A DNA stretch of 64,000 bases from the NCBI GenBank assembly GCA_963666285.1, contig OY762711.1. One strand, 5' to 3'. The translations under genes and the position numbers were made by a program. This document shows positions 1-37,869 of the stretch, in pieces (within the stretch, counting starts at the first letter, position 1; each line of letters starts with the position of its first letter). The stretch comes from Sedimentisphaerales bacterium (GTDB lineage: Bacteria > Planctomycetota > Phycisphaerae > Sedimentisphaerales > SM23-30). The notes below the pieces were generated by a model. The model worked only from the letters and a program-made list of their open reading frames with translations, searched no databases and had not been told where the DNA came from.

Positions 1-939
1 CATGGCCCAAACCAGCGGCAGTTTATAGTTTTCTCCGTAGATGTAGATATCGACAGTAGCGTCACCGACTTCGATAGATTCCTTTTTGAGCAGATGCTCT
101 TTCCATTGATCCGGTACGGCGTCTGATGAACTGCTGCCGGGTGTCTGGATTACCTGTGTGCCAAGTTCGAGGATAGAAAGAATATCATCATATTGATTTT
201 CAGTTGCGATGGATTCGATTTCACCGAGAGTGTAGTTTATATCGTCAATGTTAGGGTCAGTTATCTGGTTGTAGTCTTCCAGCAGTGTGGTAATGTCGTC
301 AAGTGAGTTTTCCTGAGCGGTGAGCCCTATTTCGTTAATAATGTTGGCCAGCAACTCGAAATCTATGTTGGTCTGGCCATTTTGCTGATTGAGATATTCG
401 TTGATAAGATCGGAAACACCCTGCAGGCCTTCGTCTTCTGCGATAGTGATGATACCGGCTAATATAGGTACGGCCACTTCCAGGTCAAGGTTGTCAATGT
501 CGATAGTTTCTATCATTTCACTTATGACAATATCGTTATTATCAACAGCTATCTGTTTTACCTGTTCGATGAGCTCTGCAAACTGTTCCGGACTGAGCGT
601 TTTAAGATCACTGGTGAGATCAGCGACTTCATCTTCTGTTTGCTGATCCGTTGAAGTCTGGGCTGTCTGACGTTTGCGTATACGATTGACCATTTCATCG
701 TTATATTCCTGGATGAGCTTACCGGCAGCAACCAGTCCGGACTCAAGAGCGTAATCACATTGGACCAGATCCTGGCGATGTTTATTCATACGAACCTGTA
801 TGAATGATTCCTGCTGAAATTCCAGGGCCAGCAGGGTAAGTACGATAATAGCCATAAGCACCAGCAGCAGGACATATCCCTTGCGTCTGGTGGTTGACCT
901 TGAAGCGTACTGAATTGTTTTGTTATTATTGCGGTACAT
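1..939 (-). CDS. gspK: Type II secretion protein K-like minor pseudopilin (runs off left edge, partial)
   Basis: Not in ORF track (no stop in window). Hand translation from ATG at 939: MYRNNNK...RRKGYVLLLVLMAIIVLTLLALEF...CDYALESGLVAAG...VGDATVDIYIYGENYKLPLVWAM, open to position 1. Class III-like signal lacking Glu+5, GspK-type 'A.SG' motif, position after G-H-I-J. Confidence 0.8.
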   Translation of the reverse strand, partial: MYRNNNKTIQYASRSTTRRKGYVLLLVLMAIIVLTLLALEFQQESFIQVRMNKHRQDLVQCDYALESGLVAAGKLIQEYNDEMVNRIRKRQTAQTSTDQQTEDEVADLTSDLKTLSPEQFAELIEQVKQIAVDNNDIVISEMIETIDIDNLDLEVAVPILAGIITIAEDEGLQGVSDLINEYLNQQNGQTNIDFELLANIINEIGLTAQENSLDDITTLLEDYNQITDPNIDDINYTLGEIESIATENQYDDILSILELGTQVIQTPGSSSSDAVPDQWKEHLLKKESIEVGDATVDIYIYGENYKLPLVWAM

Positions 940-949
940 TGTTATTTGC

Positions 950-974
950 TCAAGCTGACCGATGGTCGGTTTGA
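950..974. repeat. Intergenic hairpin between gspJ and gspK
   Basis: TCAAGCTGACC-gat-GGTCGGTTTGA imperfect inverted repeat. Confidence 0.5.
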
Positions 975-1023
975 AAGGTATCAGGTATTAAAGTACTCTA
1001 GTTTTCTAGTATCAGATTTTGAG

Positions 1024-1737
1024 TTATTTATTTGCCCTTCCAGTTGAAGTTTTACCAGTTTGGGAATTAGTTTTATTAGAGCCAGTTCGAGGTTTTCTCT
1101 CGGTACTCTTTTTGATTTCCGCTTCTTCGAGCAGGATTTCATTTATGTTGGGCATGTCAAGGATGTCATTTCTTCTCAGGCAGAAAGTTCTGTAGGTTGA
1201 GAATGTCTGTTCGCTGTTTTTATTGTAATAGCTTTCGACGAGCAGCTCAATAACGGCAGGTGCCGAATTGGGGTCTTCCAGTCCATTTTCGTTAAGCAGC
1301 CTGATATCAAAATTGGCGATGCCGTCACAAATAGGGTAATAAACATCATACCCGGTTTTGTCCTGGCTTGAATAGTCTTTTCGATATAATGTATAAGTTT
1401 CGTTTTCATCTTCGGCAGCGACCCAGCTGATTTCCCGGTTGACCTTGCCGGCCGATGAATTTTCGGTTATGCTGACGCCGCCAAGGTTTTTGATTCCCCT
1501 GGGCGGCAGGATATTGAGCTTGCCCTGTGAACTTACCGAGTCGATGATGTCGGTAGTCATTTTATCGAGGCAGAAATTGACTTGTGATTCCTGGGATATT
1601 CGCTGTCGCAGGCTCACGGTAAAATCGACAGACTGCCTGTAGATCTGCATGACTGAAATCAGGATCAGCGAGGTAATAGTCATTACCGCGATCAGTTCCA
1701 GTAGGGAAAAGCCAGATTGTCGTTTTGTATTTGGCAT
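1024..1737 (-). CDS. gspJ: Minor pseudopilin, GspJ-like
   Basis: Prepilin motif SG|FSLLE plus hydrophobic helix; order H-I-J-K. Confidence 0.75.
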   Translation of the reverse strand: MPNTKRQSGFSLLELIAVMTITSLILISVMQIYRQSVDFTVSLRQRISQESQVNFCLDKMTTDIIDSVSSQGKLNILPPRGIKNLGGVSITENSSAGKVNREISWVAAEDENETYTLYRKDYSSQDKTGYDVYYPICDGIANFDIRLLNENGLEDPNSAPAVIELLVESYYNKNSEQTFSTYRTFCLRRNDILDMPNINEILLEEAEIKKSTERKPRTGSNKTNSQTGKTSTGRANK

Positions 1738-1739
1738 TT

Positions 1740-2279
1740 TTATTCCTGCATATTCATCATACGATCTAATAGTTCCTGCATAGTAGGATCTCTGCCAAGT
1801 TCTTCTTTCAGCCTTTGGTAATCTTCATCCATTTCATAAGCCGGGCGAAGCGGTACGGCTACTGCGTTGCCAGGTTTAGGGTTTAAGCTTTCAAAGAACC
1901 TGTGCAGTTCATAAGGCTGCATAAGGTTGCCGTCTCCAATATAATTAACCGTTACTATTGCATGAATAACGGTATTGTTCAGGGTGGCAGACTTTTCGCC
2001 TACAGCTTCTCTTTTGAGGTCAAGTTTCCAGCTGAAATCCGGATCCTGCTCGTCATCGGTTTCTAGTCCGACAGAGTCCGGTTCCTGCCTGTTGGTTATC
2101 AGCAGCTCCATCTGTCTGCGGGCAACTTCCGCGGCACGCTGGGCAATCAGGCTATGGGTGACCTGTTTGGTGGATTCATTCAATACCGAGTATGCACCGG
2201 TCAGCAGCAGGCCGAGAAGCAGGGTTGCTGCGACGACCTCGATAAGAGTGAATCCTTTTTGTTTGTGTGGTGCAAGCAT
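1740..2279 (-). CDS. gspI: Minor pseudopilin, GspI-like
   Basis: KG|FTLIE prepilin motif; position in operon. Confidence 0.75.
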   Translation of the reverse strand: MLAPHKQKGFTLIEVVAATLLLGLLLTGAYSVLNESTKQVTHSLIAQRAAEVARRQMELLITNRQEPDSVGLETDDEQDPDFSWKLDLKREAVGEKSATLNNTVIHAIVTVNYIGDGNLMQPYELHRFFESLNPKPGNAVAVPLRPAYEMDEDYQRLKEELGRDPTMQELLDRMMNMQE

Positions 2280-2285
2280 ATTTAT

Positions 2286-2330
2286 CGAGTGAAGAACTAA
2301 GAGTGAAGAATTGTGGTTTGCTACGCAAGC
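2286..2330. repeat. REP-like module (purine microrepeat plus small hairpin) inserted between gspH and gspI
   Basis: GAGTGAAGAA twice, then TTGTG-GTTTGC-TAC-GCAAGC; TGAAGAATTG(T/A)GGT recurs at ~51825. Confidence 0.55.
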
Positions 2331-2404
2331 TTAATTTATACTCTGTTATGACTTAATCCTTCAAATTTCCGGTATTATTTACAATTTATATATCTTAAGA
2401 GTAC

Positions 2405-3040
2405 TTAAAAGTTTTCAACGGTTTTGGGTAATTTTGTTTCACTATAGTACTGCTTAACATTAGCAGTTGATCTTTCACATCTTAACCAGTTGGAATTCTG
2501 ACCGTTATTGTCGGTTATGGTCAGTACAAACGATTCCTGCCAGCCGCCGGAGTCGGCTTCGAAAATAAACTCTCCGGAGGTGTTGAGCTGACCGTCTTCG
2601 GTCAGAATCGAATCGAGATAGTTAAGCTGTAAAGGCTGACATTCGAAGATCAGCTCTGTTTCCCGGTTATCTTCCGGTTCTGTATCAATTGGATTAAATT
2701 CGGCACCTAAGATAGGTCTGTCGCCGAGTAGTGGTGTTTCTTCGGTGGTATTAGCGGTTCCAAATTCCAACGGCTTGTAAACTTCATAGGTTTCAAAGAT
2801 GCCATTGTCGATATCGAGTACAACTTTGATAGTTTTTCCTTTTAAGACGGCATATTGCACACTTTCCCTGAGGAAGATATCGAGTTTGTCAGCATCGGAA
2901 TCAGTTCGGCTGCGTTCGATAATCCTGACAACAGGGACGCTGGCAAACCCGGTAATCAATACAATAATAACCAGAACCAGCACAAGCTCGACAAGAGAAA
3001 ATGCCTGCCGAGCCTGATATTTTTTTGCTGAAGTATGCAT
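2405..3040 (-). CDS. gspH: Minor pseudopilin, GspH-like
   Basis: QA|FSLVE prepilin motif; immediately after gspG. Confidence 0.75.
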   Translation of the reverse strand: MHTSAKKYQARQAFSLVELVLVLVIIVLITGFASVPVVRIIERSRTDSDADKLDIFLRESVQYAVLKGKTIKVVLDIDNGIFETYEVYKPLEFGTANTTEETPLLGDRPILGAEFNPIDTEPEDNRETELIFECQPLQLNYLDSILTEDGQLNTSGEFIFEADSGGWQESFVLTITDNNGQNSNWLRCERSTANVKQYYSETKLPKTVENF

Positions 3041-3074
3041 ATTATGTAAATGACTGGAATATTATCCGAAAAAA

Positions 3075-3515
3075 CTATTCTTCAGTATTAGTTAAAGAGA
3101 AGTTGTCGATATCTCCGCTAATACCATCACCACCTTCTTCACCATCAGCGCCGTAGCAGATGATAGTGTATTCCCTGGAGTCCATTTCCGGTGGGTAGTA
3201 TTCGTAGGAATTATCCCAAGGGTCAAGCGGCAGGCCGTCACCTTCGATATACGGTCCGTCCCAGCCTTTGACATCAGCAGGTTCAACCATCAGATCTTCT
3301 AGGTATTGAGGGTAGATTCCGGTATGAAGTTTGTAGTTATCGATAGCCCTGCAGAAGATAGATATCTGAGCTTTGGCAGCCTGTACCCTGGCTGTATCAA
3401 CGTTCTGTATGATTTTCAGCCCGGCAACACCAGCAAGAACCGCAATGATTCCCAGTACAACCAGCATTTCGATAAGAGTAAAACCGTGATTTCTTTTTGT
3501 TCTGTTTCTGTTCAT
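3075..3515 (-). CDS. gspG: Type II secretion major pseudopilin
   Basis: HG|FTLIE; 'YKLHTGIYP', 'GWDGPY', 'DPWDNSYEY', 'YGADGEEGG' GspG motifs. Confidence 0.95.
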   Translation of the reverse strand: MNRNRTKRNHGFTLIEMLVVLGIIAVLAGVAGLKIIQNVDTARVQAAKAQISIFCRAIDNYKLHTGIYPQYLEDLMVEPADVKGWDGPYIEGDGLPLDPWDNSYEYYPPEMDSREYTIICYGADGEEGGDGISGDIDNFSLTNTEE

Positions 3516-3566
3516 TTGATATTCTCCATCTAAATCAAAAATACATATGTATAGGCATATATTATA

Positions 3567-4766
3567 TTAAACAGTATTGACATCCATCATAGGGATAACA
3601 ATTGCCATAAAAATCATTCCAATGATAACGGCCATAATAACAATAATAACAGGTTCGATAACAGCACCGATACGTTCGGCGGCTATATCAGTTTTTTCCT
3701 GCATGGATTCCGCGATATTTCTAAGCATGGTTTCGAGTTCGCCGCTTTTTTCACCGATAGTAATCATGTGAGCGGTGGTAGGGTCAACCAGTCCGCTGTC
3801 CCTGAGAGGGGTGGCGATGTCGGCACCACCAACGATACGTTCACGGGCACGGTGTACGGCATGGCCCATGACTACATTACCGGTAACATCGGCAACCACG
3901 GCCAGAGCATCAGCCATTGGCATACCGCTGCGCATAAGGGCAGCGAGTGTAGAAGCGAACCTGGCGACTACAGTATGTTTGATAAATGTGCCGAAGACCG
4001 GTATTTTAAGTTTGAAGCGGTCGAGCCTGGTACGCCCGGATTTGGTAGATTTCCATTTGCGGAAGAGCAAGTGAGTGACGAAAAGGCAAATAAGTATGAG
4101 CCACCACCATTGAGCCATGAAGCTACTTAGGTTTATAAGTGCTTTTGTAGAAGCGGGAAGCTCTTTACCGGTTGCCATGAGTAGTTTAGTTAGTTTAGGT
4201 ACGGCTACAGTTACGATAACAGAGACAATGACAATACAGCCAATTACGAGTATGGCGGGGTATATCATAGCACTAATGAATTTCTGTTCGAGTTTATTGC
4301 TTTTTAGCATCTGCTCTTTGAGAACTTCGAGTGAACTGCCGAGATTACCGGTAGCTTCGCCAACTTTTACCATTGATGAGTAGATGGTATCGAAGTATTG
4401 CGGATACCCTTTGAGCCCGTCCGCGAAGTTGTCACCGGCGACCAGCTGATCCTTGATATTCTGTAGAGCCTGTTTGAATTTCATGTCGGCAACCTGCAGA
4501 ATAACGAGGTCGAGCGCCTCGGTAAGTTTAACTTCGGCATTGATCATGGTACTAAGCTGGGTGGTAAAATCCATAACCAGTTTTTTATTACGTCGGCTGA
4601 CAGAAACACTGCCTTCCAAGCGAGCGGCTGCGGCCTGTTCAATGCTTTTGGGGTGAAGCATCCGGTTGCGAAGCTGTTTTCGCGCAGCGGCAGCGTTTTC
4701 AGCTACGATAGAGCCTCGTACCTGTTTACCTTCTTTGTCTATAGCTTTGTATTTGAATGATGGCAT
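3567..4766 (-). CDS. gspF: Type II secretion inner-membrane platform protein F
   Basis: MPSFKYKAIDKEGK start, two T2SSF domains ('VGEATGNL', 'IGEKSGEL'), 3 TM segments. Confidence 0.95.
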   Translation of the reverse strand: MPSFKYKAIDKEGKQVRGSIVAENAAAARKQLRNRMLHPKSIEQAAAARLEGSVSVSRRNKKLVMDFTTQLSTMINAEVKLTEALDLVILQVADMKFKQALQNIKDQLVAGDNFADGLKGYPQYFDTIYSSMVKVGEATGNLGSSLEVLKEQMLKSNKLEQKFISAMIYPAILVIGCIVIVSVIVTVAVPKLTKLLMATGKELPASTKALINLSSFMAQWWWLILICLFVTHLLFRKWKSTKSGRTRLDRFKLKIPVFGTFIKHTVVARFASTLAALMRSGMPMADALAVVADVTGNVVMGHAVHRARERIVGGADIATPLRDSGLVDPTTAHMITIGEKSGELETMLRNIAESMQEKTDIAAERIGAVIEPVIIVIMAVIIGMIFMAIVIPMMDVNTV

Positions 4767-4799
4767 TGTTTAAGCAAGTAATAACTAATAAATTATTTA

Positions 4800-4814
4800 T
4801 CCGCCTTTGGCGGA
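4800..4814. repeat. Short REP-like palindrome between gspE and gspF
   Basis: TCCGCC-ttt-GGCGGA. Confidence 0.5.
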
Positions 4815-4819
4815 CTGGA

Positions 4820-6535
4820 TTATACTTCGTCGGACTGGGCCATACGCAGGATTTCCTCGAGCGAAGTCATGCCTTGTTCGACCTTTCTCATGCCGTCCAT
4901 TCGAAGAGTGGTCATCCCACTTTCGAGAGCGACTTTTTTGATCATAGCAGCGCTTTTCCGCTGGTAAATACATTGCCGGACATCGTCGTCGATAGTCATA
5001 AGTTCGTATATGCCTGTTCGTCCCATATACCCGGTTCTAAAACATTTATCACAACCTTTTGGTTCATAGACTTTTTCGAAGCCGGAATACGCCAGCCCCA
5101 GTTTCTTGATTTTATCCGAATCGCCCGCGATTTCCTCTTTGCAATGCGGGCATAACCTTCTGACAAGCCGCTGTGCCAGGGCACCGACAACAGAGGAGGC
5201 AACCAGGTACGGTTCGACATTGAAATCGAGTATACGGGTAATAGCGCCAGATGCATCATTGGTATGCAGGGTGCTGAATACCAGGTGACCGGTAAGCGAG
5301 GATTGGATAACCATCCGAGCGGTTTCCTCATCACGTACCTCACCAACCATAATAACATCCGGGTCCTGACGCAGAATATGTCTCAGGGCGGTGATAAAAG
5401 TCATGCCTTTGCGGTTGGCGACCTGAATCTGGCTTATGCCGTCGAGATGATATTCGATTGGGTCTTCTACGGTGATAACGTTCTTTTCACGAGCATCAAT
5501 TTTCTGCAGAAAGCTGTAAAGAGTAGTACTTTTACCGCTACCGGTAGGCCCAGTTACAAAGAATACGCCGTGAGGCCGGTTGATAAGATCCCCGATACGG
5601 TCATAGTCATAATCGCTGAGTCCAAGCTCTTTTAGCGAGTAAACTCCGCTGCCTTTATCGAGAATACGCAAAACCGACCGTTCGCCATAGGCGGTAGGTA
5701 CGGTACTAACACGGAGGTCAACTTCGCGTGACCCGATTCTGACACTACAGCGTCCGTCTTGAGGCATACGTCGTTCAGCGATATCCATGCCGCTCATAAC
5801 CTTGATACGGGATACGAGAACCGGCAGCAGTCTCGGGTCGAGAGTGAGCATATCGTATAGAAGTCCGTCGATACGGTATCGTACCATCAGCTTTTGTTCA
5901 AACGGATGGATATGTACATCAGAGGTTCTCATCTGGAGAGCCTTGAAGAGGATATCATTAACCAGACGGATAACCGGCGGTCGGTTGACAACATCAAGCA
6001 GGTCTTCGCTGGAGACGTCGCCGATAAGACTCTGGATACTGCTGGAGTCAACTTCTTCGGCAACTTCTTCGAGTACGGTTGTTCGGTTTTCGTATGCACC
6101 GTTAATCGCAGTGTTGATGATAGCACGGTTGGCAAGTGCGGGTATGACAGGCAGTCCTGTCATATTAGCGATATTATCGACGGCATAGAATTCCAGCGGT
6201 CTGCATGTGGCAATGACAAGGGAGCCGTCACGGTTTTCGACGGCACAGACATTGTGCTGATGAGCGTAGTTGCTGGGCACAATATTTGAAAACTCGGCAG
6301 GAACATCAGCCGGGTCGATATGTTCGAGATAATCCATCCCGAGTGCCGCAGCGAAGAGCCTGAGTACCTGGTCTTCGGTGAAGCTACCTTCGGCCAGTAT
6401 CATGCTGTCGAGATCGGCGGGGTTGTCCGAGACCTCGAGCTTTCGGGCGCATATTTCCAGCACATCTTCGAGGTCGCCAGGATCGACGGCCCCGGTTTTT
6501 CTTGCTGCTGTAATTAACTTATCTTGTATTTTCAT
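4820..6535 (-). CDS. gspE: Type II secretion ATPase
   Basis: Walker A GPTGSGKSTT, Asp box TVEDPIE, LRQDPDVIMVGEVRD, His box STLHTND, CxxC...CxxC zinc motif. Confidence 0.95.
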   Translation of the reverse strand: MKIQDKLITAARKTGAVDPGDLEDVLEICARKLEVSDNPADLDSMILAEGSFTEDQVLRLFAAALGMDYLEHIDPADVPAEFSNIVPSNYAHQHNVCAVENRDGSLVIATCRPLEFYAVDNIANMTGLPVIPALANRAIINTAINGAYENRTTVLEEVAEEVDSSSIQSLIGDVSSEDLLDVVNRPPVIRLVNDILFKALQMRTSDVHIHPFEQKLMVRYRIDGLLYDMLTLDPRLLPVLVSRIKVMSGMDIAERRMPQDGRCSVRIGSREVDLRVSTVPTAYGERSVLRILDKGSGVYSLKELGLSDYDYDRIGDLINRPHGVFFVTGPTGSGKSTTLYSFLQKIDAREKNVITVEDPIEYHLDGISQIQVANRKGMTFITALRHILRQDPDVIMVGEVRDEETARMVIQSSLTGHLVFSTLHTNDASGAITRILDFNVEPYLVASSVVGALAQRLVRRLCPHCKEEIAGDSDKIKKLGLAYSGFEKVYEPKGCDKCFRTGYMGRTGIYELMTIDDDVRQCIYQRKSAAMIKKVALESGMTTLRMDGMRKVEQGMTSLEEILRMAQSDEV

Positions 6536-6581
6536 AATTAAATTGTTTCAAACTGGCCGGTTAAGAGTTTACAAGACCGAT

Positions 6582-9500
6582 TTAATTTACACGTTCACGT
6601 TTTTCCGGTTTGAATCCAGGAATAATTGGCATCTCGTTAAAGTTTTCCTGCAGTTCTCTCATCTTTTCTTCATTTATTTTAGAAATACTCTTGAGCTGTT
6701 CAAAGTTCTGGTCACTTACTATTTCCGCTTTGACAAATACGTATAGAACTGTTCTGCCCTTGGTTTTAGATATATTTCTGAAGGCAGAACCTAATATGGG
6801 TATATCACCGAGCAGCGGTATTTTATTTTCTGTTTCTGTCCAGCTGGTCTGGGTAAGCCCGCCGAGGATGATATAAGCACCATTTGGAATGTTAACATGG
6901 GATTCCAGGTTGTTGTTTGCGGTAGAGGTGTCACTACCTTCACCGATAAAGTTGTCAACATCCAGAGTGATCTCCAACCTTAGGAATGCCTTTTCATTTT
7001 CCGGGTCATCATCAAAGACGCCAATATGCGGAGTGACAGTAAGGGTAGTACCGGCTTCTTTCCATTCAGAAACCTCGGTGATAGGTGTGTCACTACCGGC
7101 AGGGATTGTTGTGCGTTCGATAGGCCTGGAAGTAGAGCTGGTAATTGTAGCCGATTTGTTGTCAAGGGTAAGTACCCGCGGCATACTGGAGATTTCCGAG
7201 TTTGTATTGGTATTAATAGCTTCCAAAGCGGCATAGATAAAATCTTCCTTGAAGAAAGCGATTGTACCGCCGGTACCGGTTGCAACTCCATTGTCACCGA
7301 TGGAAACCCCGTCAATACTGAATGGAGAAACCCCGGAAATAGAACTGCCGTCAGGCGTGCCAAATACATCTTTTAAGGTGACGCCGAGTTTGAAAGAGTC
7401 GTCCAGAGTGATCTTTATCAGGCTGGCCTCAATAAGAACCTGCGGCATCGGGACGTCGATATCATTAATAATCGACTCTATCTCTTCCAGTTGGCGTTTA
7501 CTGCCGCGAACGGCAACAGAGAAAATATCTTCGAGTTCATGAACCGTAGGAGCCATTTCCAAACCTTTCAGTTTGGATTCACCTTCAGAGACTTCACCCT
7601 GGTCGATAAGCGGCTGGACATATAGAGAATCGAGAGCCGCCGCGACAGTGGCCGGTTCCTGGTTACGCATCTTGAAGACTTTGACCTGTCCCATAGTGTC
7701 GTCAGGTTCGACATCGATAACCTTGATCATCTCGGTTATCTCTTCATGCTGGTAAAGGGTAGCATAAATGAATAATCTATTGGTCGGTTCATGCTGGGCA
7801 ACGTATATAATCGGTTCCTCGATATTAGTCCAGGAGTCCCATTCATTGATGACAATATTCTGCCCGGAGATAGGGTCGAAGGTTTGCTGCCTAAGGTTTC
7901 TATTGTTATTGGAGTTGTATCTCTGATATTTCTGATCCAGGCTTTCACTGGTTTGAGTCAGTTCAAGATCGTCAAGAATAGTTCTAACATCGCTTACAGG
8001 TACATACTTCAACTGATGTATTTGCAGGGTCATGTTGTCATGTTTGCTAGGCGGCACATCAATAATCGGCATGAGGTCGACAATTTCGTTATACTGTTCA
8101 TTGGTCGATACAACCAGCAGGCGGTTGGTTCTATCGTCCGGCAGCAGGAATGGTCCGCGAGGTGAAACTTCAATAATCGAAGACAGTCCTTCCCGCCTGT
8201 TATACCCGCTGTTAGTGTTACGGGAACTAGCATTTCTGTTGTTGTCATTGTAGCTGTCAAGCAGGTTAGAATTTCTATTAGAGCTATTGTTGCGATTGCT
8301 GTTACTGCCGTATTGGTTTGACCTGGAGCTGCTGCCTGACTGGGGCTGTTCCTGTTCATGCAGTACAGCGAGCAGTTTAGCGACCTGGTCGGCAGCTTCA
8401 GAGCTAAGGATATATTTGAGCTGCGGAGCGATCTGCAGGTTCAGCCCGATAGATTTATCGAGTATTTTGATCATGTCATCAACCTGCTTGATCTGTTCGT
8501 CCATACCGACAACAAATAATCTGTTAAGCCTGTTGTCAGCCATGAGGAAAGGTCCTTCCTCGCCAACCTGCTGTAGAGAAGGAGAGGAAGTTCTATTATC
8601 AGAATCATTTCTGTTTGACTGTCTTTGGTTAGTGCCGAAGATATCGCTTGACCTGCCTCTGTCAATAGTGTTTTTAGTCGGATCTTCTTCGGTATTGGAG
8701 CTGAGAGCTTCAATAAGTTGGGTTATCTGTTCGGTAATAGCTTCAACTTCAACGACATCAAAGGTGAAGATTTCGAGGCGAACTTCACTGTTAGGCCATT
8801 CCTGATCGATGATTTCGACCAGTTCTTTAGCCTGGTCAATTTGTTCGCGAACACCGACAATCAGAATTCTGTTCAGGCGTTCATCAGCCAGCATGAAAGG
8901 GCCGGCATCCTCTTCATCAGAAGAAGTTTGCGGTTCAGAGGTATTATTATCGTTTCTGCCCGGAGTTCTTACTCTGTTATTTGGAGTTCTGCCGGTAATA
9001 CTAGTGTTGCTTGGAGCCTTGCCGGTAGACTGTTCGTTGATAGCGCCGATAAGTTCTTTAACTTTGCTAAGAGTGTCGGCAGCTTCAGTGTTTTCCAGTT
9101 TCAGGATTTCTAATGTGATTTCACCGCCGGGCAGAGGGACATCAAATAAAGCGAGCAATTCTTCGAACTGTTCGATCTGTTCTTTCCAACCGAGAATAAT
9201 AATACGGTTGGTCCGGTCATCAACAAGCATAAACATGCCGTCAACCTGTTCATCGTTTGAAGCTTGAGTGTTGGTTCTGCGTTGGTTTGTTGATGGTCTG
9301 GCAGTCCTGTTGTTTGGCGTTGGCTGAGTCGGTTCCGGATCGGGGCTGTCGGCCTGTTCCTGTTCGGCCTGTTCCTCGTTAATAGCTTTCATAAGCTTCT
9401 GGATCTTTTCGACAGCATTTTGCGAGTCCAGATAAACCGGAGAATAAATTTTCAGCTCAACCTGCTGGCCGCCTTTTGGTACATCAAACAGGCTTAGAAT

Positions 9501-11354
9501 ATGTTTAATATTTTTGATTTCACTTTCGGTGCCGATAATGAACAATCTTCCGGTTCGTTTATCCACCGTAATGCTGGGAGCAATAGAGCTGCTGTTGTTT
9601 GCAGGTGTTCCGGCCTGGTTGCCGCCAGTTCTGTTTCTTGCGTTATTTATTGCCTGCTGCCTTCTTTCGGCGGCAATAGCTCTAGCTCTTTCAGCAGGTG
9701 ACATACCTTCAAAGCGGTTAGGGTCTTTGTCGGGAGTTTCAGAGCTGCCGTCTTCGGCATTATTGTCGGCAGATACACCATCTTCTCCGTAGAGTTTGTT
9801 GTACATATCTTCCAGGATTTTCTTGGTATCTTCCGGCTTCAGGTAATTAGGAATGAAAATTTCAAGTTTCTTTTCCGGTCCGGATACATCAACCATTTCG
9901 ATAATGTCATTTATTCGCTTTATATTCCTGGAATAATCGGCGATAACGATTTTGTTTGTGTTAGGGATTTCGGTGATAATATCAGATGATGGAATGAATT
10001 TATCCAGTATAGGTTTTAATGTTGTCGCATATTCTATGTTATTCAGAGTTACAACTGTTGCAACGATAGTGTCGTCAGCTTTGGCATATTCTTCATCAAG
10101 ATCAGGTGAGAAGATGCCGGTGTTTTTCTGGATTTCAGTCATTTTCATGATCTTGGTATATGGTCCTTCCTTAATCATCATGTAGGGAGGATTACATTTA
10201 GCAAGAACCGAGGTCAGCAGCGGGAGCAGTTCTTCTCTCTTGATAGTGCCGTACTGCTGCAGCATGATAGAACTGGAAGGTACCTGGCCGTCTTCATACC
10301 AGAAGTTTAGCTCAAGCTCTTTACCGACGGTAAGCAGCAGTTCGCTAAGGTCGATCCTGTCGTCTTTAGTCTGGATACGGATACTGTCAGAAGGCAGTTT
10401 TTCAATGACAATATCAGCTTCTTGTTTTTCTTCATCGGCATTGACGGTCTGAGATGAGCTTTTATCAATGGTAATGTTAGTTTCCGGTTTTGGTTCTGTT
10501 TTATTGCTTGTTGAGCCGGTAGTGTCAGGTTTGGCAACAGTAGTCCTGGTTGTTACAGGTTTGACAGTAGTTCTGTTTGCAGCAGGTTTTGGAGTGTTGT
10601 TTTCAATTTCTTTGGTTTTGCTGGTTTCAGTTTTTTCTTCCTGCTTTTGCTCTACAATATTACGTGGAGGATTGACTTTTCCATTGATTTTTTTAGGGAA
10701 AATCCCGGTTGCCGGTTTAGTATTTGGATCGGTTTTATTTTCTTTAGTTTCAGGCTGTTTTTTAGCCGGTTCAGTTGCAGGAGTGGTTTGGGCATTCTTT
10801 TTTTGATTTTCTTGAATTCTTTTTTCAATTTTCTCATTAAATGCTTTTGCTTCGGGGCTATCGATGCCTTTTGTTTCCTGGATTTCAGCCATTTCAGTGA
10901 ACATTTTGAAGATTTCTTTATCTTCCTGGCTCATTGTGTCAGGCAGTTTCAGTTCTTTGAGCTTTTGAGCTTCAGTTTTTTTATTATCGTCAGCTTCTTT
11001 TTTCTGTTTTTCAGGCTCAGCCTGAGCGACCAGCAGCTCCTGGTTTGAGTTTGAACTGCCGCTGTTATTCGAACTGCTATGGGCAGTGGAAATGCCAGCG
11101 GTAACGGTGTTATGCTGAGGGGCCGGTGTATTATTGTTGTTGAAGTTACCGAATATGCCTGCAATCAAAATTCCGGCAGCAAAGGGCAGAAGAATCAACA
11201 ACGGCTGAATCTGGTATTTTTGCCGGATAAAATTATTAATTTCGACAATTTTTGAGGTAAACTCTTTTACTTTGGCGATAAACGCATTGGAAGTCGTTTT
11301 GCATGATACTTCCAGGCTTTGTTTGTCTGTATTTTTCGGTGCCATAACTATCAA
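6582..11354 (-). CDS. gspD: Giant type II secretion outer-membrane secretin (start may be ATG 11345)
   Basis: C-terminal secretin domain (PQVLIEA..., ILGGL, KIPLLGDIPILGSAFR); N0 plus ~8 repeated N-domains ('D.RTNRL.I.G...QI......L.D'). Confidence 0.92.
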   Translation of the reverse strand: MIVMAPKNTDKQSLEVSCKTTSNAFIAKVKEFTSKIVEINNFIRQKYQIQPLLILLPFAAGILIAGIFGNFNNNNTPAPQHNTVTAGISTAHSSSNNSGSSNSNQELLVAQAEPEKQKKEADDNKKTEAQKLKELKLPDTMSQEDKEIFKMFTEMAEIQETKGIDSPEAKAFNEKIEKRIQENQKKNAQTTPATEPAKKQPETKENKTDPNTKPATGIFPKKINGKVNPPRNIVEQKQEEKTETSKTKEIENNTPKPAANRTTVKPVTTRTTVAKPDTTGSTSNKTEPKPETNITIDKSSSQTVNADEEKQEADIVIEKLPSDSIRIQTKDDRIDLSELLLTVGKELELNFWYEDGQVPSSSIMLQQYGTIKREELLPLLTSVLAKCNPPYMMIKEGPYTKIMKMTEIQKNTGIFSPDLDEEYAKADDTIVATVVTLNNIEYATTLKPILDKFIPSSDIITEIPNTNKIVIADYSRNIKRINDIIEMVDVSGPEKKLEIFIPNYLKPEDTKKILEDMYNKLYGEDGVSADNNAEDGSSETPDKDPNRFEGMSPAERARAIAAERRQQAINNARNRTGGNQAGTPANNSSSIAPSITVDKRTGRLFIIGTESEIKNIKHILSLFDVPKGGQQVELKIYSPVYLDSQNAVEKIQKLMKAINEEQAEQEQADSPDPEPTQPTPNNRTARPSTNQRRTNTQASNDEQVDGMFMLVDDRTNRIIILGWKEQIEQFEELLALFDVPLPGGEITLEILKLENTEAADTLSKVKELIGAINEQSTGKAPSNTSITGRTPNNRVRTPGRNDNNTSEPQTSSDEEDAGPFMLADERLNRILIVGVREQIDQAKELVEIIDQEWPNSEVRLEIFTFDVVEVEAITEQITQLIEALSSNTEEDPTKNTIDRGRSSDIFGTNQRQSNRNDSDNRTSSPSLQQVGEEGPFLMADNRLNRLFVVGMDEQIKQVDDMIKILDKSIGLNLQIAPQLKYILSSEAADQVAKLLAVLHEQEQPQSGSSSRSNQYGSNSNRNNSSNRNSNLLDSYNDNNRNASSRNTNSGYNRREGLSSIIEVSPRGPFLLPDDRTNRLLVVSTNEQYNEIVDLMPIIDVPPSKHDNMTLQIHQLKYVPVSDVRTILDDLELTQTSESLDQKYQRYNSNNNRNLRQQTFDPISGQNIVINEWDSWTNIEEPIIYVAQHEPTNRLFIYATLYQHEEITEMIKVIDVEPDDTMGQVKVFKMRNQEPATVAAALDSLYVQPLIDQGEVSEGESKLKGLEMAPTVHELEDIFSVAVRGSKRQLEEIESIINDIDVPMPQVLIEASLIKITLDDSFKLGVTLKDVFGTPDGSSISGVSPFSIDGVSIGDNGVATGTGGTIAFFKEDFIYAALEAINTNTNSEISSMPRVLTLDNKSATITSSTSRPIERTTIPAGSDTPITEVSEWKEAGTTLTVTPHIGVFDDDPENEKAFLRLEITLDVDNFIGEGSDTSTANNNLESHVNIPNGAYIILGGLTQTSWTETENKIPLLGDIPILGSAFRNISKTKGRTVLYVFVKAEIVSDQNFEQLKSISKINEEKMRELQENFNEMPIIPGFKPEKRERVN

Positions 11355-11486
11355 AGCTCCAGCTAGTTATAAAAACAGGTTTAATAATTTATAATGTTTA
11401 TACTTTTTGCCAGACAAAATGTTTCCAGGCTGTCCAGTTTGTTTCGATTTTGCAAATACTCATGGCAAGCTATTGCCAGGAAATAT

Positions 11487-11960
11487 TTGCGTTTCAATAT
11501 TCTATTTTTAGTTTTTATTACTGTTTGTATATTTATTGCGGGTTGTTCACAACCAGCTCCGGTAGAACCGGTTGAAAAAGCTGTTTCTATGCCAGAGGAA
11601 ACAGGGCATGAGGTCATTGATGAGGATACCCGTATAATCAGTAAGCTAACCGACGGCATCCTTAATTGCCTGGCAACGAACAAATATCAATGGCTCAAGC
11701 ATTATACAGTCAGCGATTTAAACGGTCCTCAGGTTGCCCGTGTCCTTGTTGGCGACGCAGCATTTGACTACAATATCACAGAATGGAATTTAAGCGAGAT
11801 CAGTATCTCATACAGCGCGGATAAAAAAGCTGCGCTGGTATCCATCCCGGTAATTTGCGTGGCCCGGGTAAATCCCAAGTACGGTCCGCAAACAGCAATA
11901 TTTAATTTTCAATTTATATATTCAGCACAACATAATCGCTGGCTGTTAAATATCAAATAG
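11487..11960 (+). CDS. Lipoprotein, candidate secretin pilotin/accessory (ORF track start 11394; TTG 11487 preferred)
   Basis: AGGA 6 nt before TTG 11487; MRFNILFLVFITVCIFIAG|C lipobox; lies between gspC-like and gspD. Confidence 0.65.
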   Translation: MRFNILFLVFITVCIFIAGCSQPAPVEPVEKAVSMPEETGHEVIDEDTRIISKLTDGILNCLATNKYQWLKHYTVSDLNGPQVARVLVGDAAFDYNITEWNLSEISISYSADKKAALVSIPVICVARVNPKYGPQTAIFNFQFIYSAQHNRWLLNIK

Positions 11961-11988
11961 TAATGAAAGATCTATCAGAAAGAGTATT

Positions 11989-13575
11989 TCAGGATCTCGT
12001 GGTTTGAGGTCTGCGAAAGCTACTCGGTCTGTTTGGTATGGATCTTTCGGGAACTTCTTTTCCCGGAATGCTTCTATCTGGGATATTTCTTCCAGGTTCA
12101 TCAATAAGCGGCGGTTCCTGAATGTCTCTTTTTTCAAGTTCCGGTCTGCCAGGCCTGTTTTTTTCAGGTGTTGCCGGGGGGCGTACCGGTGAGTTTACTT
12201 TTTGCGTGACAGGAGCTACGGGCGGATCAGTTTTCTTAATCTGTAGTTCGTATTCGAACCCTTCTTTTTCGAAAAATGCTTTGCCCTGTCCGACAGCAAT
12301 GAGTTTGAAATCCTGAATTATCTCACCAACTTTATACCCTTCTTTATTATTAATAAATGCAACTCCATTACCGCCGCCAGTTTCAATAACGGTGACAATT
12401 TCGAATTTCGGTCCAGGAGGTTTGATCCGTACGTATTCACAGCTCATGTCGTAAGTAATTTCCTCTTCAACATTGAGCTGAACATCATCCGGTTTAGTCC
12501 ATCCCTCAACATTCTTGAAACTGATTTTGTGTTCTTTCAGTGTAACTTTTTCCCCGATCTGATCAAAGTTAAGCCATGGCCCGTTATCAATTCTCCATTG
12601 AGCAGAACTAATTCGATCATCGTTAGCAGGCTTCAGTTCAATTTTTACCTGAGCGTATGGGATAGGCAGGTATTCAGCGATAATTTCGTATGCTGTTTCT
12701 TCTTCCATATTTAACTTATAATCATCCGGTTTATCCCAGTCGGCGACATCCTTAAAACTAACAGTATAGCTACCCAATCTTGTTTTTACAGGTTCAGCAC
12801 CAAAGTTATTCCAGTTTTTCTTATCGATGGACCATTTCGCGACACTAAGAGCAGGGTTATCCTTTGGTTCAAGGCTGACATATATTTCGCCATACCTGAT
12901 AATTTCATAACTGGCAGTAATTTCGGTTGTATTGTCTTCTGTGATGTCAACGGCAACCGAGGGCTTATCCCAACCTTCGATATCTTTAAATACTATATTC
13001 TTTTTACCAACAGCAGTTTTCTGGCTTTCCTGACCACTATCGAGCCATTGTCCGTTTCCAATTTTCCATTGCGGCTTAAGTTTGAGAACTTCTTCCGGTT
13101 CGATAACGATTTTGACAGTGCCCTGTGGCGGGAGGGTGTAGACAGCCGTAATTTCGGTATTCAGGTCTTTTTTGACTTCGGCAGTGATTTTTGGACTAAT
13201 CCATTCGTCAATAGATTTGAATGTCAGGATTTTTTTTCCGGGAGAAATTTTTTCATCTTTGTCGCCGGAGTTGAGCCATGTGTTTCCACCGACACGCCAG
13301 GCGGCTCCGAGTTTACGAGCATCTTCCGGTTCGATCGTTACAGTAAGAGTTCCGAATGCAGGAGGCGGGTCCAGCCAGTGAGAAAATCCCCTGGCGGCGA
13401 GAACCGTTTCAGACTCCATATTGGATATATCATTTTCGCCAGAGCCGGCTCTGGTTGCCGGAGCTTTAAAACGAGCTTTGGAAGGGTAATCTGGGCCTGC
13501 CATAATTCCCGTTATCCAAATTGCTGCCAGTGCGATAATCAAAGCAGCATTTATGTACCAAAGCTTATTATTCAC
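11989..13575 (-). CDS. GspC-like protein with four PEGA/Ig-like repeats
   Basis: N-terminal TM helix; 4 x ~78-aa repeats (G...V.LEP...A.W.I....W...FK.VEGW.KP...EI.A.Y); HR-like segment GVAFINNKEGYKVGEIIQDFKLIAVGQGKAFF; Pro/Arg-rich tail; first gene of T2SS cluster. Confidence 0.7.
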   Translation of the reverse strand: MNNKLWYINAALIIALAAIWITGIMAGPDYPSKARFKAPATRAGSGENDISNMESETVLAARGFSHWLDPPPAFGTLTVTIEPEDARKLGAAWRVGGNTWLNSGDKDEKISPGKKILTFKSIDEWISPKITAEVKKDLNTEITAVYTLPPQGTVKIVIEPEEVLKLKPQWKIGNGQWLDSGQESQKTAVGKKNIVFKDIEGWDKPSVAVDITEDNTTEITASYEIIRYGEIYVSLEPKDNPALSVAKWSIDKKNWNNFGAEPVKTRLGSYTVSFKDVADWDKPDDYKLNMEEETAYEIIAEYLPIPYAQVKIELKPANDDRISSAQWRIDNGPWLNFDQIGEKVTLKEHKISFKNVEGWTKPDDVQLNVEEEITYDMSCEYVRIKPPGPKFEIVTVIETGGGNGVAFINNKEGYKVGEIIQDFKLIAVGQGKAFFEKEGFEYELQIKKTDPPVAPVTQKVNSPVRPPATPEKNRPGRPELEKRDIQEPPLIDEPGRNIPDRSIPGKEVPERSIPNRPSSFRRPQTTRS

Positions 13576-14124
13576 AATACATTACCTCTACAAAGGTTTT
13601 CTGAACATAATGAAATATTTATCGTTTAATATTTACCAAGCCGTATAATTCATACAGGTCGAATAAACATATCGACAATTTATAAGCGCAAATATAGTTG
13701 AAACTTACAGAAAAACAGCAAAAAAAGAGGGGCAAACTACTATCTGGCTAGCAGTGCCGGTATTGATGTATATTATCGAATTCGGCTGCATCTAAAAATT
13801 CCTGGCTTATTTGGCGTTAACAGTATAAAAATCGGCGTTTTGACGGTGGAATCTGATAAGTATCTTAACCACTGTCAACTATCATGTTATCGACATTTAG
13901 CGATAGCTGTCAATAGCCAGTATGGAAGTGTAAAATAGTGTGACAAACAGCTATTTCTAGCTGTAAGTCATTCTATTTAATTAGTTTATGGAAATAAGTT
14001 CTATTTGAGATGCAGTTATATTGGGTGTGTTATTTTACAAACCTTTTACAATTGGTCACGATGCCATAACTTCAGTCTGGAGTGTGTCCGTTATTTTGGG
14101 GGGCGAGGAAGCCTATAACGACTG

Positions 14125-15321
14125 TCATAATTCGGTATAGCCTCCGAATTTTTGGACTTTATGTTCGATCATAATATTTTCTTTTGGCAGATCGATAGCT
14201 ATGCCGGTGTATCCCTTCTCAAATTTATAGGAATGGTTTCTCATGCCATCAAAAGCTAAAACGTCTCCTGGCTGAATCTCAAATTCACCGTCTTCAATAG
14301 AAACAGTCATTTTACCTTCAAGAGGTACATGCAATTCCAGGCAGAATGGATGGTTGGGGTCAGAAAATAACTCTTTGTTATGTTGATCGCATTTCAGTAA
14401 ATGGAAATGCAGGTTGTGATTTGTTTCTGTAACGAGAGTAGATCCCTTATATTCCGATTTGTTTACGGTTGTAGGAATTTTTTGGGCCATTGTAAATAGA
14501 TTTACCGTGGTTTCGTTTAAGACCGTCGATAATGCCGATATGGTTGCGAGAGAAGGAGCGCGTTTATTGTTTTCTATTAGTGAAATAGCAGAAGTTGATA
14601 GACCAGCAGCTTCTGCGAGCGTATCCAGGCTCATATTTTTTGTGTTTCTCAGGAACTTTATGAAAGAGAAATCCATATCATCTTTACAAATACTGATTTC
14701 TTTTTCGCTATCGAGGTGTTTTGGATAGGTTTCAAGTATAGTAGCCAAATCTTCGAGCGGGTTATGATTATGATGAAAATTGCATTTATTTTTAAGAATT
14801 GTAATAACCTTACAATGGTCTTTAACTGTAGTGACCCTTTTGGATAATCCGCTTAAACTGATGCATTCGTTTGGCATAACAGAATAATCTTCACCGTCAA
14901 TATTGACATTAAATGAACCATCAATAGCATAAGTAAAAACATTAAAGTAAGGTAATCTGGCGAGGCAAATGTCATCTACGGGCTGGCCGACAGATATTAT
15001 GCCAATATAATAGCCGTTATACTCATAAAATTTAATACTATGGTCAATTTCACTGTCCAGTTTAATATCATTAACTTCCAACATTGCAGATTTAAAGCGA
15101 TGAGAGAGGCTAACATATTTGGAGAAATCAATATCCAAAGCCTGAATAAGTGCTGTAATAGTAGAGAGAGATGCCGGAAAACGGTTTTGTTCAACGTTCA
15201 GGATGGTTTGTTGGGTGATGCCTGATTTTTCAGCGAGTTCTCTTCTACTCCATTTTTTTTTCTCACGAAGAGTTTTTATAATACTCTGATCGTAGTCTTC
15301 CACATTACCTTGCGGTTTCAT
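14125..15321 (-). CDS. Transcriptional regulator with duplicated XRE-HTH + cupin architecture
   Basis: Two HTH_3 motifs (IKTLREKKKWSRRELAEKSGIT; IKFLRNTKNMSLDTLAEAAGLS), each followed by a cupin-like beta region (e.g. PGDVLAFDGMRNHSY); AAGGA RBS. Confidence 0.85.
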   Translation of the reverse strand: MKPQGNVEDYDQSIIKTLREKKKWSRRELAEKSGITQQTILNVEQNRFPASLSTITALIQALDIDFSKYVSLSHRFKSAMLEVNDIKLDSEIDHSIKFYEYNGYYIGIISVGQPVDDICLARLPYFNVFTYAIDGSFNVNIDGEDYSVMPNECISLSGLSKRVTTVKDHCKVITILKNKCNFHHNHNPLEDLATILETYPKHLDSEKEISICKDDMDFSFIKFLRNTKNMSLDTLAEAAGLSTSAISLIENNKRAPSLATISALSTVLNETTVNLFTMAQKIPTTVNKSEYKGSTLVTETNHNLHFHLLKCDQHNKELFSDPNHPFCLELHVPLEGKMTVSIEDGEFEIQPGDVLAFDGMRNHSYKFEKGYTGIAIDLPKENIMIEHKVQKFGGYTEL

Positions 15322-36161: not shown

Positions 36162-37811
36162 CTAGTTGTTAAACAGGGTATCCTGCTGCAGTATTTTATA
36201 GACAAAGTTTCTAATTGAATGTTTATCGGACTCAATGAGTTCTGTGCCGCTTATTTCCTGTTGCAGGGCAACAGCGTCTTTATGCAGCGGCATTACATAT
36301 GCCGAACGATCAATATATTTTTTAGCATCTTCGGCTTCACCCATCTCTATCGCCTGGCGTGCCTGACGATAATAATGTTCTGCCAGCCTGGTGCGACCAA
36401 TAGGCATAAGTTTGTTACTCATACTTGACATTGTTCGGCCAATATCACCTTTAACTCTCTCAGCCATAGCATAATCCATGTCTTCATTGATGATATGAGG
36501 AGTGATCAGGAAGATAACCTCTTCTTTGTTAACGGTGTCGCTTTGGCTGCGGAATAATGCGCCAACTCCCGGAACTTCACCCAGCAGAGGGACCTGACTG
36601 CGTGTGACAGTTGTTTTGTCACGGAAAAGTCCGCCAATTACGATAGTATGACCATCTTTTACCAGAACATTAGAAGTGACTTCGGCTGTCTGTTCGGAAG
36701 GCAGAACAAATGTGCCTTTTGTTTCTACACCACCATCACTATCCTTGGTCATAAGTTCCATACGGATATAGCCGTCATTCATAACAAAAGGTCTGAATAT
36801 CAACTGGGTACCGGTTTCCAGAAATTCAACAGTCTGGGTTGCAGTAGTCTGCGATACTTCGGTAGTAACATAACCATCTTTGTTACCAACAATTACACGA
36901 CCTTGCTGACGGTTGAGAGTAAGTACTTTTGGATTGCCCAGGGTAACTACATCGGTGATACTTTCCAATGCTTTAATCATTACACTGATATTATTTTTCA
37001 CAATGTTAAGTGAGAAGCCGCCATCACTGACTTTAGAGGTAAAACCTGTTCCAATTGTGGCAGCGCCGTTTTTGATTGTGCTCTGACTGTCCGGGATAGC
37101 AAAGCCGCCGTTCTGATTAACAAAATCTACGCCGCTGAGAACATTGAAATCAATACCAAATTCATTAGTATCGTTAAGAGAAGCGACAAGAATAGTTGCC
37201 TCGATAAGTACCTGGGGAGGGCGGACATCGATTTCATCAATAATTTGACCAATCATTCCAAGGTTTTCAGGATAATCAATAACAACTATGCAGTTTTTAG
37301 CTGCCCAGTTTTCACCAGATTCATCGGTAGGGCCGGAAAGTTCCGGTGAGATAGATATGGAACCGGCTTCGCTGACTACCGGTTTGATCAGGTCGTTTAC
37401 TGAGACAGCCGGCACATAATTAAGTGAAAATACTCTTGTTTCCAGCTTGCGATTTGCTGACTGGATAGCGTTAAATTCATCCTGAGTGTAGACAAAAATA
37501 AATGCCCCTTTTTCTTCGTAGGTGTAACCATTGGCCGGTAAAACAGCGTCCAGAGCTTCCTTGCAGCTTACATCAAAAAGGTTGACTTTCACCTCGCCGG
37601 CGACAGCTTTTGTAGGGATAATATTCCTGTTGCACTTTAAGCTCAGCATTTGCAGAAATTCTACAATATCGCCATTATGAACCAGTGATTCGAGAATATA
37701 CCCCGTATTGGCAGTGTCTGTGTCTGAAGTTTCTTGTGCCGCAGTATTTGCGGTGCACATTGAAATTGCCGCGATTGATAATAGAGCTGTAACTAAAATT
37801 CTGGTTTTCAT
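36162..37811 (-). CDS. Second secretin (PilQ/GspD/MshL-like)
   Basis: Signal peptide; N0 and one N3-type domain; RPPQVLIEATI, VKDGHTIVIGGLF, VPLLGEVPGVGALF, FLITPHII; C-terminal TPR-like helix. Confidence 0.92.
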   Translation of the reverse strand: MKTRILVTALLSIAAISMCTANTAAQETSDTDTANTGYILESLVHNGDIVEFLQMLSLKCNRNIIPTKAVAGEVKVNLFDVSCKEALDAVLPANGYTYEEKGAFIFVYTQDEFNAIQSANRKLETRVFSLNYVPAVSVNDLIKPVVSEAGSISISPELSGPTDESGENWAAKNCIVVIDYPENLGMIGQIIDEIDVRPPQVLIEATILVASLNDTNEFGIDFNVLSGVDFVNQNGGFAIPDSQSTIKNGAATIGTGFTSKVSDGGFSLNIVKNNISVMIKALESITDVVTLGNPKVLTLNRQQGRVIVGNKDGYVTTEVSQTTATQTVEFLETGTQLIFRPFVMNDGYIRMELMTKDSDGGVETKGTFVLPSEQTAEVTSNVLVKDGHTIVIGGLFRDKTTVTRSQVPLLGEVPGVGALFRSQSDTVNKEEVIFLITPHIINEDMDYAMAERVKGDIGRTMSSMSNKLMPIGRTRLAEHYYRQARQAIEMGEAEDAKKYIDRSAYVMPLHKDAVALQQEISGTELIESDKHSIRNFVYKILQQDTLFNN

Positions 37812-37869
37812 TGTTCTACCTCTGGCTCACTGTTGGAGCTGCCAAAAAAAGTAATAAAAGTCCCTAGTT

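Follow-up and report, generated by a model that had tools for sequence, protein, structure and literature searches.

A complete type II secretion operon in a Sedimentisphaerales bacterium

The window analysed here is a stretch of 64,000 nucleotides from contig OY762711.1 (GenBank assembly GCA_963666285.1) of a Sedimentisphaerales bacterium, phylum Planctomycetota. Its first 13,575 nucleotides carry most of a type II secretion system (T2SS) operon, in which an initial annotation had described the secretin GspD, the inner-membrane connector GspC and the minor pseudopilin GspK as lengthened in a coordinated manner. We find a real, conserved T2SS variant, with a nine-domain periplasmic part in GspD and, as its distinctive feature, a GspC linker rebuilt from interchangeable spacers. 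The minus-strand operon comprises the full set C-D-E-F-G-H-I-J-K-L-M, is free of internal stops and has a gene order that is kept across the order (Table 1). The order is Sedimentisphaerales, its name being taken from close homologues, and the family, f1, comprises 25 genomes.

Judged by its sequence, the operon is a T2SS, with a secretin bearing N0 and N-domains, GspE and GspF, GspG together with four minor pseudopilins, and a GspC with an HR domain. A type IVa pilus identity was excluded, since the Gsp models of E, F, G and D outscore the pilus models and the operon has no second ATPase. TIGR02517 is the best NCBIfam model for GspD (297 bits, under the cut-off of 351); GspE scores 629 bits with TIGR02533 against 527 bits for PilB, and GspF 349 bits with TIGR02120 against 260 bits for PilC, both under cut-off. 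GspK matches NF037980 at E 3.6e-11, also under cut-off, and is followed outside the window by conserved genes of 481 aa (L position) and 172 aa (M position), which were named by position and size and gave no family match in Pfam/NCBIfam-type scans. Neither a prepilin peptidase (GspO) nor a pilotin was recognised in the operon, the rest of the genome not having been searched for either, and a promoter and terminator scan at the locus stayed at chance level. No RNA data set was among the sequencing runs listed as containing the sequence. GspE, GspF and GspG are of ordinary size, as first described; GspD and GspC aside, the other parts of the operon have sizes usual for the order. Three metagenome homologues with 74-82% identity share the eight N-domains of GspD, which excludes an assembly artefact; a further contig has bases 1-14000 without any change, but may come from the sequencing run behind this DNA.

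Table 1 Features of the T2SS locus in window coordinates.
Feature	Position	Strand	Description or basis
gspC	11989..13575	-	528 aa; membrane helix, conserved helix and PPP motif, four spacers, HR, Pro-rich tail
Four GspC spacer repeats of about 76 aa	12427..13356 (13132-13356, 12901-13125, 12664-12894, 12427-12657)	-	predicted beta-sandwich
GspC HR domain, residues 388-448	12232..12414	-	structural match to 3oss_C
Family-specific predicted lipoprotein	11394..11960	+	188-codon frame between gspC and gspD
gspD secretin	6582..11354	-	1,590 aa; TTG start, ATG three codons downstream
Helical-hairpin-like motif of GspD, residues 141-180	10815..10934	-	in low-complexity region ahead of N0; family-conserved
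GspD N0, about residues 323-410	10125..10388	-	4jtm_A match
Eight GspD N-domains, residues 428-1302	7449..10073	-	Pfam, AlphaFold2 model, repeat alignment
Secretin pore domain and C-terminal extension of GspD	6582..7448	-	PF00263, E 1.8e-31
GspE ATPase	4820..6535	-	571 aa; TIGR02533, 629 bits, cut-off 630
GspF	3567..4766	-	399 aa; TIGR02120, E 4e-104
GspG major pseudopilin	3075..3515	-	146 aa; TIGR01710 above cut-off; PF08334
GspH-like minor pseudopilin	2405..3040	-	211 aa; prepilin motif; family match below cut-off
GspI-like minor pseudopilin	1740..2279	-	179 aa; prepilin motif; family match below cut-off
GspJ-like minor pseudopilin	1024..1737	-	237 aa; N-methyl motif and gene position
GspK, 5' part	1..939	-	541 aa in total, 686 bases beyond window start; variable acidic loop at 64-753

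GspD has a nine-domain periplasmic part

A GspD of about 1,590 aa with some eight N-domain repeats, as read by the initial annotation, was confirmed by each of the approaches used. Pfam finds eight Secretin_N stretches (PF03958, E 2.9e-48) and one Secretin domain, and our own N-domain profile also counts eight. Residues 321-1310 were modelled with AlphaFold2 (61-row alignment, mean predicted local distance difference test score (pLDDT) 69.9, predicted template modelling score 0.35), which gave N0 followed by eight beta-alpha-beta-beta-alpha units, the core of each at high confidence. Foldseek returned PulD as the best match to this model (E 1.4e-10), the top matches being the N regions of PulD, XcpQ and GspD. 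The N0 domain is under Pfam detection in the window GspD, although PF21305 does match orthologues, and aligns with N0 of enterotoxigenic Escherichia coli (ETEC) GspD, 4jtm_A, among the VIA matches (Z 8.2, root-mean-square deviation (rmsd) 2.7, 79 of 81 residues). Single units match secretin N domains in the same list at rmsd 1.6-2.9, for example 5w68_A (Z 9.5, rmsd 2.0, 64 aligned) and 2y3m_B (Z 8.4, rmsd 1.6, 63 aligned); most of that list concerns the two units at each end, and the middle ones are assigned from Pfam and the model. The repeats are thus predicted to fold as secretin N-domains, as had been supposed.

In units 2-7 the first helix is joined to the second strand by loops of 68, 45, 43, 47, 65 and 49 aa. 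These loops are rich in Ser, Asn, Arg, Glu, Thr and Gln, mostly have pLDDT below 50 and are predicted to be disordered; the first, of 68 aa, holds a predicted helix. The N3 loop of known GspDs faces the lumen. About 320 residues lie ahead of N0, made up of a long N-terminus, a hydrophobic stretch near residues 50-69 and low-complexity sequence with a 40-residue motif, the profile of which matched family members and nothing convincing outside. By eye, the region ahead of N0 in other families (L022-L041) seems to contain one or two degenerate N-like domains in place of the helical motif.

A tree of 135 repeat units (few columns, weak support) suggests that the first and the last two units are constant and that one middle unit was amplified. 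Recent in-gene duplications of N-domains were found in L021 and L014. Tandem repeats at the DNA level are limited to two short arrays, and the duplications within gspD are therefore old.

The GspC linker is built from four folded spacers

In the model of GspC (8-row alignment, mean pLDDT 73.6), the membrane helix and a further short helix lead into four beta domains; a fifth follows these, and the tail is disordered. The four extra beta-rich repeats previously noted between membrane helix and HR domain were recovered at residues 74-148, 151-225, 228-304 and 307-383, joined by linkers of 2-3 residues and with 17-30 identical residues per 75-77 between copies. Their predicted fold is similar to the CnaB/transthyretin-like sandwiches found in pilin stalks. 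The spacers matched nothing in Pfam or NCBIfam; PEGA (PF08308) gave no match at E up to 1 and is a lead only, its atlas clusters reaching 0.86-0.89 against 0.96 for unnamed clusters. The repeat also occurs in 3-8 copies in unrelated proteins, and a secreted-type protein of 1,771 aa in the same genome contains it once; it is therefore a mobile module.

Beyond the spacers, GspC is predicted to adopt the HR fold that the initial annotation had ascribed to it. Residues 387-447 align with the HR domain of ETEC GspC, 3oss_C (Z 8.1, rmsd 2.2, 59 of 65 residues), where a Z of about 8 is near background for the structure library used and the assignment draws in addition on coverage of the whole domain and on gene position; GspB 4wfw_A (Z 6.1) and the type IVa pilus chain 3jc8_Pa (Z 6.2) were also matched. 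The 528-aa gene lies upstream of gspD across the order, as expected of gspC, while the protein has no Pfam match to a GspC family and no PDZ domain. Complex prediction of HR with GspD N0-N2 scored 0.23 against a mark of 0.32, using 32-row alignments and no folded control pairs.

GspD and GspC lengths among relatives

We examined 79 orthologous loci and kept the 62 in which both the GspC linker and the N region of GspD were complete; in the other 17, GspC was cut off or non-adjacent. N-domain counts were amended by eye in L004 (7 to 8), L020 (11 to 12) and L195 (5 to 4). A metagenome scan with the secretin alignment was dominated by ordinary secretins and gave usable orthologues at 4 of 80 loci (L042, L047, L052, L089).

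The co-variation of D and C repeats, which had been put forward as a check, was seen in these 62 pairs as an association: spacers (2-4) are present in all 11 pairs with 7-12 N-domains and in none of the 51 with 4-5. The long loci, all in the family, combine N-domains and spacers as 7/2, 8/3, 8/4 (three times), 9/3, 10/3, 10/4 (twice) and 12/4 (twice). Outside the family, 30 loci have four N-domains with linkers of 13-36 aa and 16 have five with linkers of 31-41 aa, none of them with spacers. The five family loci with five N-domains and no such spacers have Pro-rich linkers of 32-48 aa (three loci), two FN3 domains (one) or six extra HR domains (one). Dropped or broken loci are concordant, L012 having eight N-domains with at least three spacers and L141 at least seven with four. 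The gspD of the latter (L141:395-5430, genome G017) is spread over several frames, which may be a sequencing error there. Among the best 150 matches of a GspC profile search, which did not include partner GspDs, three more GspCs have a single spacer preceded by Pro-rich sequence, and the FN3 and multi-HR forms are each represented a second time. L010:4201-6057 encodes a GspC with seven tandem HR domains, and P0116 is a fragment with four; a multi-HR GspC could touch several N0 domains or act as a spacer.

Within the family the GspC linker has been lengthened in four ways at one site, by Pro-rich sequence (32-48 aa), by a pair of FN3 domains, by six additional HR domains or by 1-4 spacers, and this comparison of sequences suggests selection for length rather than sequence. 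At genus level, repeat number and order are fixed at about 50% identity. On three quick trees the changes in GspD length and in spacer content fall in identical places (2, 3 and 2 changes); FastTree rooting suggests losses in the short forms and IQ-TREE gains or a mix.

We estimated maximal reach from assumed lengths of 2.5-4 nm for a ring, 3.5 nm for a spacer and 0.31 nm for a free residue. When domain number was compared with this reach, independent contrasts gave r 0.43 (61 contrasts, nominal p 0.0004), with agreement in 10 of the 15 informative ones, a suggestive result given that reach uses assumed lengths and that internal family branches are unstable. A weak positive trend is seen between sister lineages (L019 and the window's genus; L017 and L020). 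The step from four to five domains in family f6 (median linker 24 against 34 aa) was rejected as an independent replicate, since four-domain members of f6 already have 29-36 aa. GspL length does not track GspD N-domain number.

The GspK loop is a separate change

GspK had been credited with an acidic insert of about 200 aa. A long acidic loop of 230 aa (Y63-G292) does connect the N-terminal helix to the first conserved strand, but its excess over near relatives is about 110-160 aa and its D+E share (0.21) is similar to that of short versions (0.13-0.24). Three close metagenome homologues have loops of 227-234 aa, against 72-122 aa in other family members and 107-209 aa outside the family, where the 209 aa belong to a four-domain relative; same-genus loci with an eight-domain GspD and a four-spacer GspC have loops of 104 and 109 aa. 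Loop length and N-domain number correlate at Spearman 0.51 (p 0.07) in the family and at -0.48 across 35 loci of the order. A coupling of GspK to GspD through total length (Spearman 0.74, n 14, family) was rejected, as it hinges on start calls and the loop itself does not track. Confined to the window genome and the three homologues, the insert is a late and independent change and falls outside the coordinated lengthening. What stands of that claim is that GspD and GspC lengths are loosely matched, without a fixed ratio and possibly through one event.

Other long secretins in the Planctomycetota

The best secretin matches in 120 other genomes of the phylum are mostly 650-900 residues long, with scattered long ones, and in the class a related secretin domain sits in a frame of at least 2,000 residues in 35 of 101 genomes. 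Seven single-gene giants that were scanned (L122:3391-16818, L150, L152, L154, L158-L160) have 19-53 Secretin_N stretches in 2,457-5,409 aa. Two others are split over adjacent genes (L156:1527-15297, L157:4610-18058), the first gene of each pair having N-domains only (18 or 19 stretches) and the second 12 or 14 stretches together with the pore. The giant GspDs sit in T2SS operons, and with 19-53 N-domains in other T2SSs of the Phycisphaerae the window machine is not the extreme case. A third long-GspD lineage (L123, L124, L125, L127) has 9, 10 and 14 N-domains and GspCs of 269, 262 and 293 aa encoded at the operon end. In a quick tree of 27 secretins the three expansions are separate; a branch of support 98 lies between the window GspD and the giants and places it outside the giant clade.

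The rest of the genome and the envelope

The same genome has two further T2SS operons, with GspDs of 681 and 714 aa (each N0 and three domains); the genes in the C position encode 184 and 299 aa. TonB frames measure 226-336 residues in the 8 of 25 family genomes with a match, and 234 in the window genome. Since ordinary T2SSs and an ordinary TonB occur in the same genome, the envelope is not uniformly wide, which contradicts the explanation by a generally very wide periplasm. Planctomycete periplasm has been reported to be convoluted and much enlarged, with crateriform structures confined to places where the membranes lie close together, albeit in another class (PMC5394234). Such an uneven periplasm allows a site-specific reading. 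Other secretin frames measure 621-1,102 residues in G016 (10 domains), 648-842 in G004 (10) and, leaving the tetratricopeptide repeat (TPR) type aside, 633-1,017 in G010 (5).

A second secretin of 549 aa with one N-domain lies in the window itself at 36162-37826 on the minus strand (L145), beside pilin-like genes. Elsewhere in the genome, L137:4607-8344 encodes a 1,245-aa secretin with TPRs, a Gly/Met-rich insert and no N-domains, and TPR-secretin-like frames of about 1,170-1,320 residues occur across the family. A 1,622-aa 'secretin' frame was discarded as a weak partial match in an unrelated protein.

The genome has 114 frames of at least 1,200 aa and 22 of at least 2,000 aa, many of the latter with signal-peptide-like starts. 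The frames at C1:2757710-2791267, 3162210-3193856 and 160198-177546 encode 11,171, 10,528 and 5,755 aa, two of them with a LEPR-XLL match; contigs C2, C3 and C4 (about 65-66 kb each) have one 3,700-5,500-aa frame each, two with similar starts, and may be related mobile elements. LEPR-XLL showed no pattern as a cargo marker in these incomplete genomes: giant proteins with it accompany long and short GspD alike, and very large cargo, the other adaptation that had been suggested, gained no support. No cargo gene is conserved beside the operon in the relatives' loci.

Neighbouring genes

The gene on the opposite strand between gspC and gspD, which the initial annotation had overlooked, encodes a predicted lipoprotein; in each of the 19 aligned homologues a hydrophobic stretch is followed by a Cys. 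It is antisense in 18 of 19 loci, on the same strand in L141 and absent in L014. It was not found outside the family and has no Pfam/NCBIfam family; atlas matches at 0.91, one of them NTF2-like, are a lead only. We regard the protein as a candidate pilotin. Read-through from gspC to gspD would be antisense to this gene. Directly upstream of gspC, in a low-GC stretch, lies a 398-aa regulator with two XRE helix-turn-helix stretches (14125-15321, minus strand), a position not kept in most relatives.

A probable long-reach secretion system

On balance we favour the reading that this is a complete T2SS in a long-reach version, probably bridging a locally wide gap between inner and outer membrane by means of GspD rings and GspC spacers. 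Each N-domain would add one ring under the pore and HR would dock on N0 at the base, so that the extensions of GspD and GspC would sum; we infer the oligomerisation of GspD, one ring per N-domain and the binding of HR to N0 from solved T2SSs. By rough estimate the barrel would be 12-20 nm longer than that of a three-domain GspD, and GspC would extend to a maximum of about 18 nm, compared with some 4-11 nm in relatives with four domains. As two ordinary T2SSs are retained in the same cell, the long machine would operate at sites of wide membrane separation. For its cargo, the likeliest guess in this order is secreted enzymes that degrade polysaccharides.

Several observations weigh against this reading. 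The tree test does not reject a single origin of long GspD and spacers (p-AU 0.58), and the fit is slightly better with it; with 1-2 independent pairs the binary association is statistically light. Among the 11 long forms, domain and spacer numbers correlate at Spearman 0.41 (p 0.21), four spacers occurring with anything from 8 to 12 domains. The estimated reach of five-domain family members (10-24 nm) overlaps that of the long forms (13-20 nm). Outside the family, the 9-14-domain GspDs of the third lineage pair with spacer-free GspCs of 262-293 aa, and a long GspD therefore does not require a long GspC. Lastly, TonB and other secretins are not longer in long-GspD genomes.

The extra N-domains might instead form no closed tube at all, acting as a flexible tether or cargo-binding sleeve under a normal pore while the spacers help GspC to reach a mobile N0. 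We consider this unlikely, as the complete beta-alpha-beta-beta-alpha core is predicted with high confidence in every repeat and Thermus PilQ stacks five such folds and N0 as rings. The possible single origin would also suit a history in which repeats grew by drift in a roomy periplasm, with long GspD and spacer-bearing GspC coinherited from one ancestor. That history would further account for the recent in-gene duplications in L021 and L014, the lack of a fixed ratio of domains to spacers, and the free variation of the GspK loop and the region ahead of N0. The constancy of repeat number and order within a genus at about 50% identity, the four linker types at one GspC site and the weak trend in sister pairs nevertheless make it quite unlikely in our view. 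Finally, a longer barrel and a taller GspC cage could provide a bigger loading chamber for very large or elongated cargo, the machine itself holding the membranes apart. Substrate entry has been proposed through the GspC cage (PMC6882859), the D. radiodurans GspD has been described as an envelope spacer (PMC10828601), and the genome has the 22 frames of at least 2,000 aa noted above. Against these points, the pore domain shows no enlargement, the operon has no conserved cargo gene next to it, and LEPR-XLL giants occur in short-GspD genomes and were not found in several long-GspD ones (incomplete genomes); we judge this explanation very improbable.

The long-reach reading can be extended, tentatively and with more doubt than conviction, to a two-part adjustable ruler. 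Short T2SSs would then work at close membranes and one roughly twice as tall at wide regions, and the tube would be lined by six disordered loops from each subunit (about 90 per 15-mer), which would act as an entropic filter.

The operon bears on the question of how secretion machines handle the wide, uneven periplasm of planctomycetes. One orthologous operon offers a natural series of 4, 5, 7, 8, 9, 10 and 12 N-domains with 0-4 spacers or three other linker types, and the presence of short and long T2SSs in one cell makes it testable that span is set by ring number and GspC reach. Window-type proteins are small enough to express, in contrast to giants of 4,000-5,000 residues, and if HR and N0 still dock, the GspC linker would be a replaceable spacer. 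The principle has precedents in Thermus and Deinococcus, the window secretin is modest next to the giants, and no cultured member of the family came to light.

Comparison with known systems

No lengthened planctomycete GspD or GspC was found in the literature covered, which left out most subscription journals and the PMC5394234 supplement on secretion proteins, and the accessible parts of PMC12475490, PMC11131199, PMC3422733 and bioRxiv 2023.11.21.568195 held nothing on N-domain number. That this number varies among secretins has been reported (PMC8563730).

Giant Phycisphaerae GspDs share with the window a T2SS operon and a tandem N-domain array, but form their own branch, closer to the ordinary 681-aa GspD of the window genome; in four loci their partner is a 345-366-aa GspM-like protein with no spacer repeats by eye. 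The GspC spacers are like the CnaB/transthyretin stalks of Gram-positive pilins and adhesins in predicted fold (6fwv_B, Z 9.6, rmsd 12.8, 229 aligned; single CnaB-like domains, Z about 8 and near library background, rmsd 2.2-2.9, 71-80 aligned). Identity is at most 15%, and unlike those stalks the window spacers sit in an inner-membrane connector.

The DR_0774 complex of D. radiodurans (8co1) is a secretin about 35 nm tall, matched to envelope thickness (PMC10828601). It is the top VIA match (Z 9.8, rmsd 24.5, 245 aligned), but owes its length to an additional N-terminal flange with N0-N3 and not to repeated N-domains. PilQ of Thermus thermophilus (N0-N5) comes closer in its extra N rings: six rings form a channel of about 35 nm and span most of a periplasm of about 70 nm (PMC5745081, PMC4463427). 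In contrast to the window, this 757-aa protein serves pili and DNA uptake, has six rings against nine domains, and leaves the gap to be filled by proteins other than a lengthened GspC.

In canonical T2SSs, GspC HR contacts GspD N0 (PMC3169554), PulC spans the periplasm to the base of a secretin protruding about 20 nm (PMC6882859), and the Legionella vestibule measures about 23 nm (bioRxiv 10.1101/525063). With Klebsiella PulC/PulD (6hcg) and ETEC GspC-GspD (3oss) the window system shares the gene set C-M, the N0/N folds, the HR fold and the secretin pore. It differs in having eight N-domains rather than three after N0, a 320-aa region ahead of N0, and a GspC without PDZ in which four folded domains replace the disordered stretch of the linker.

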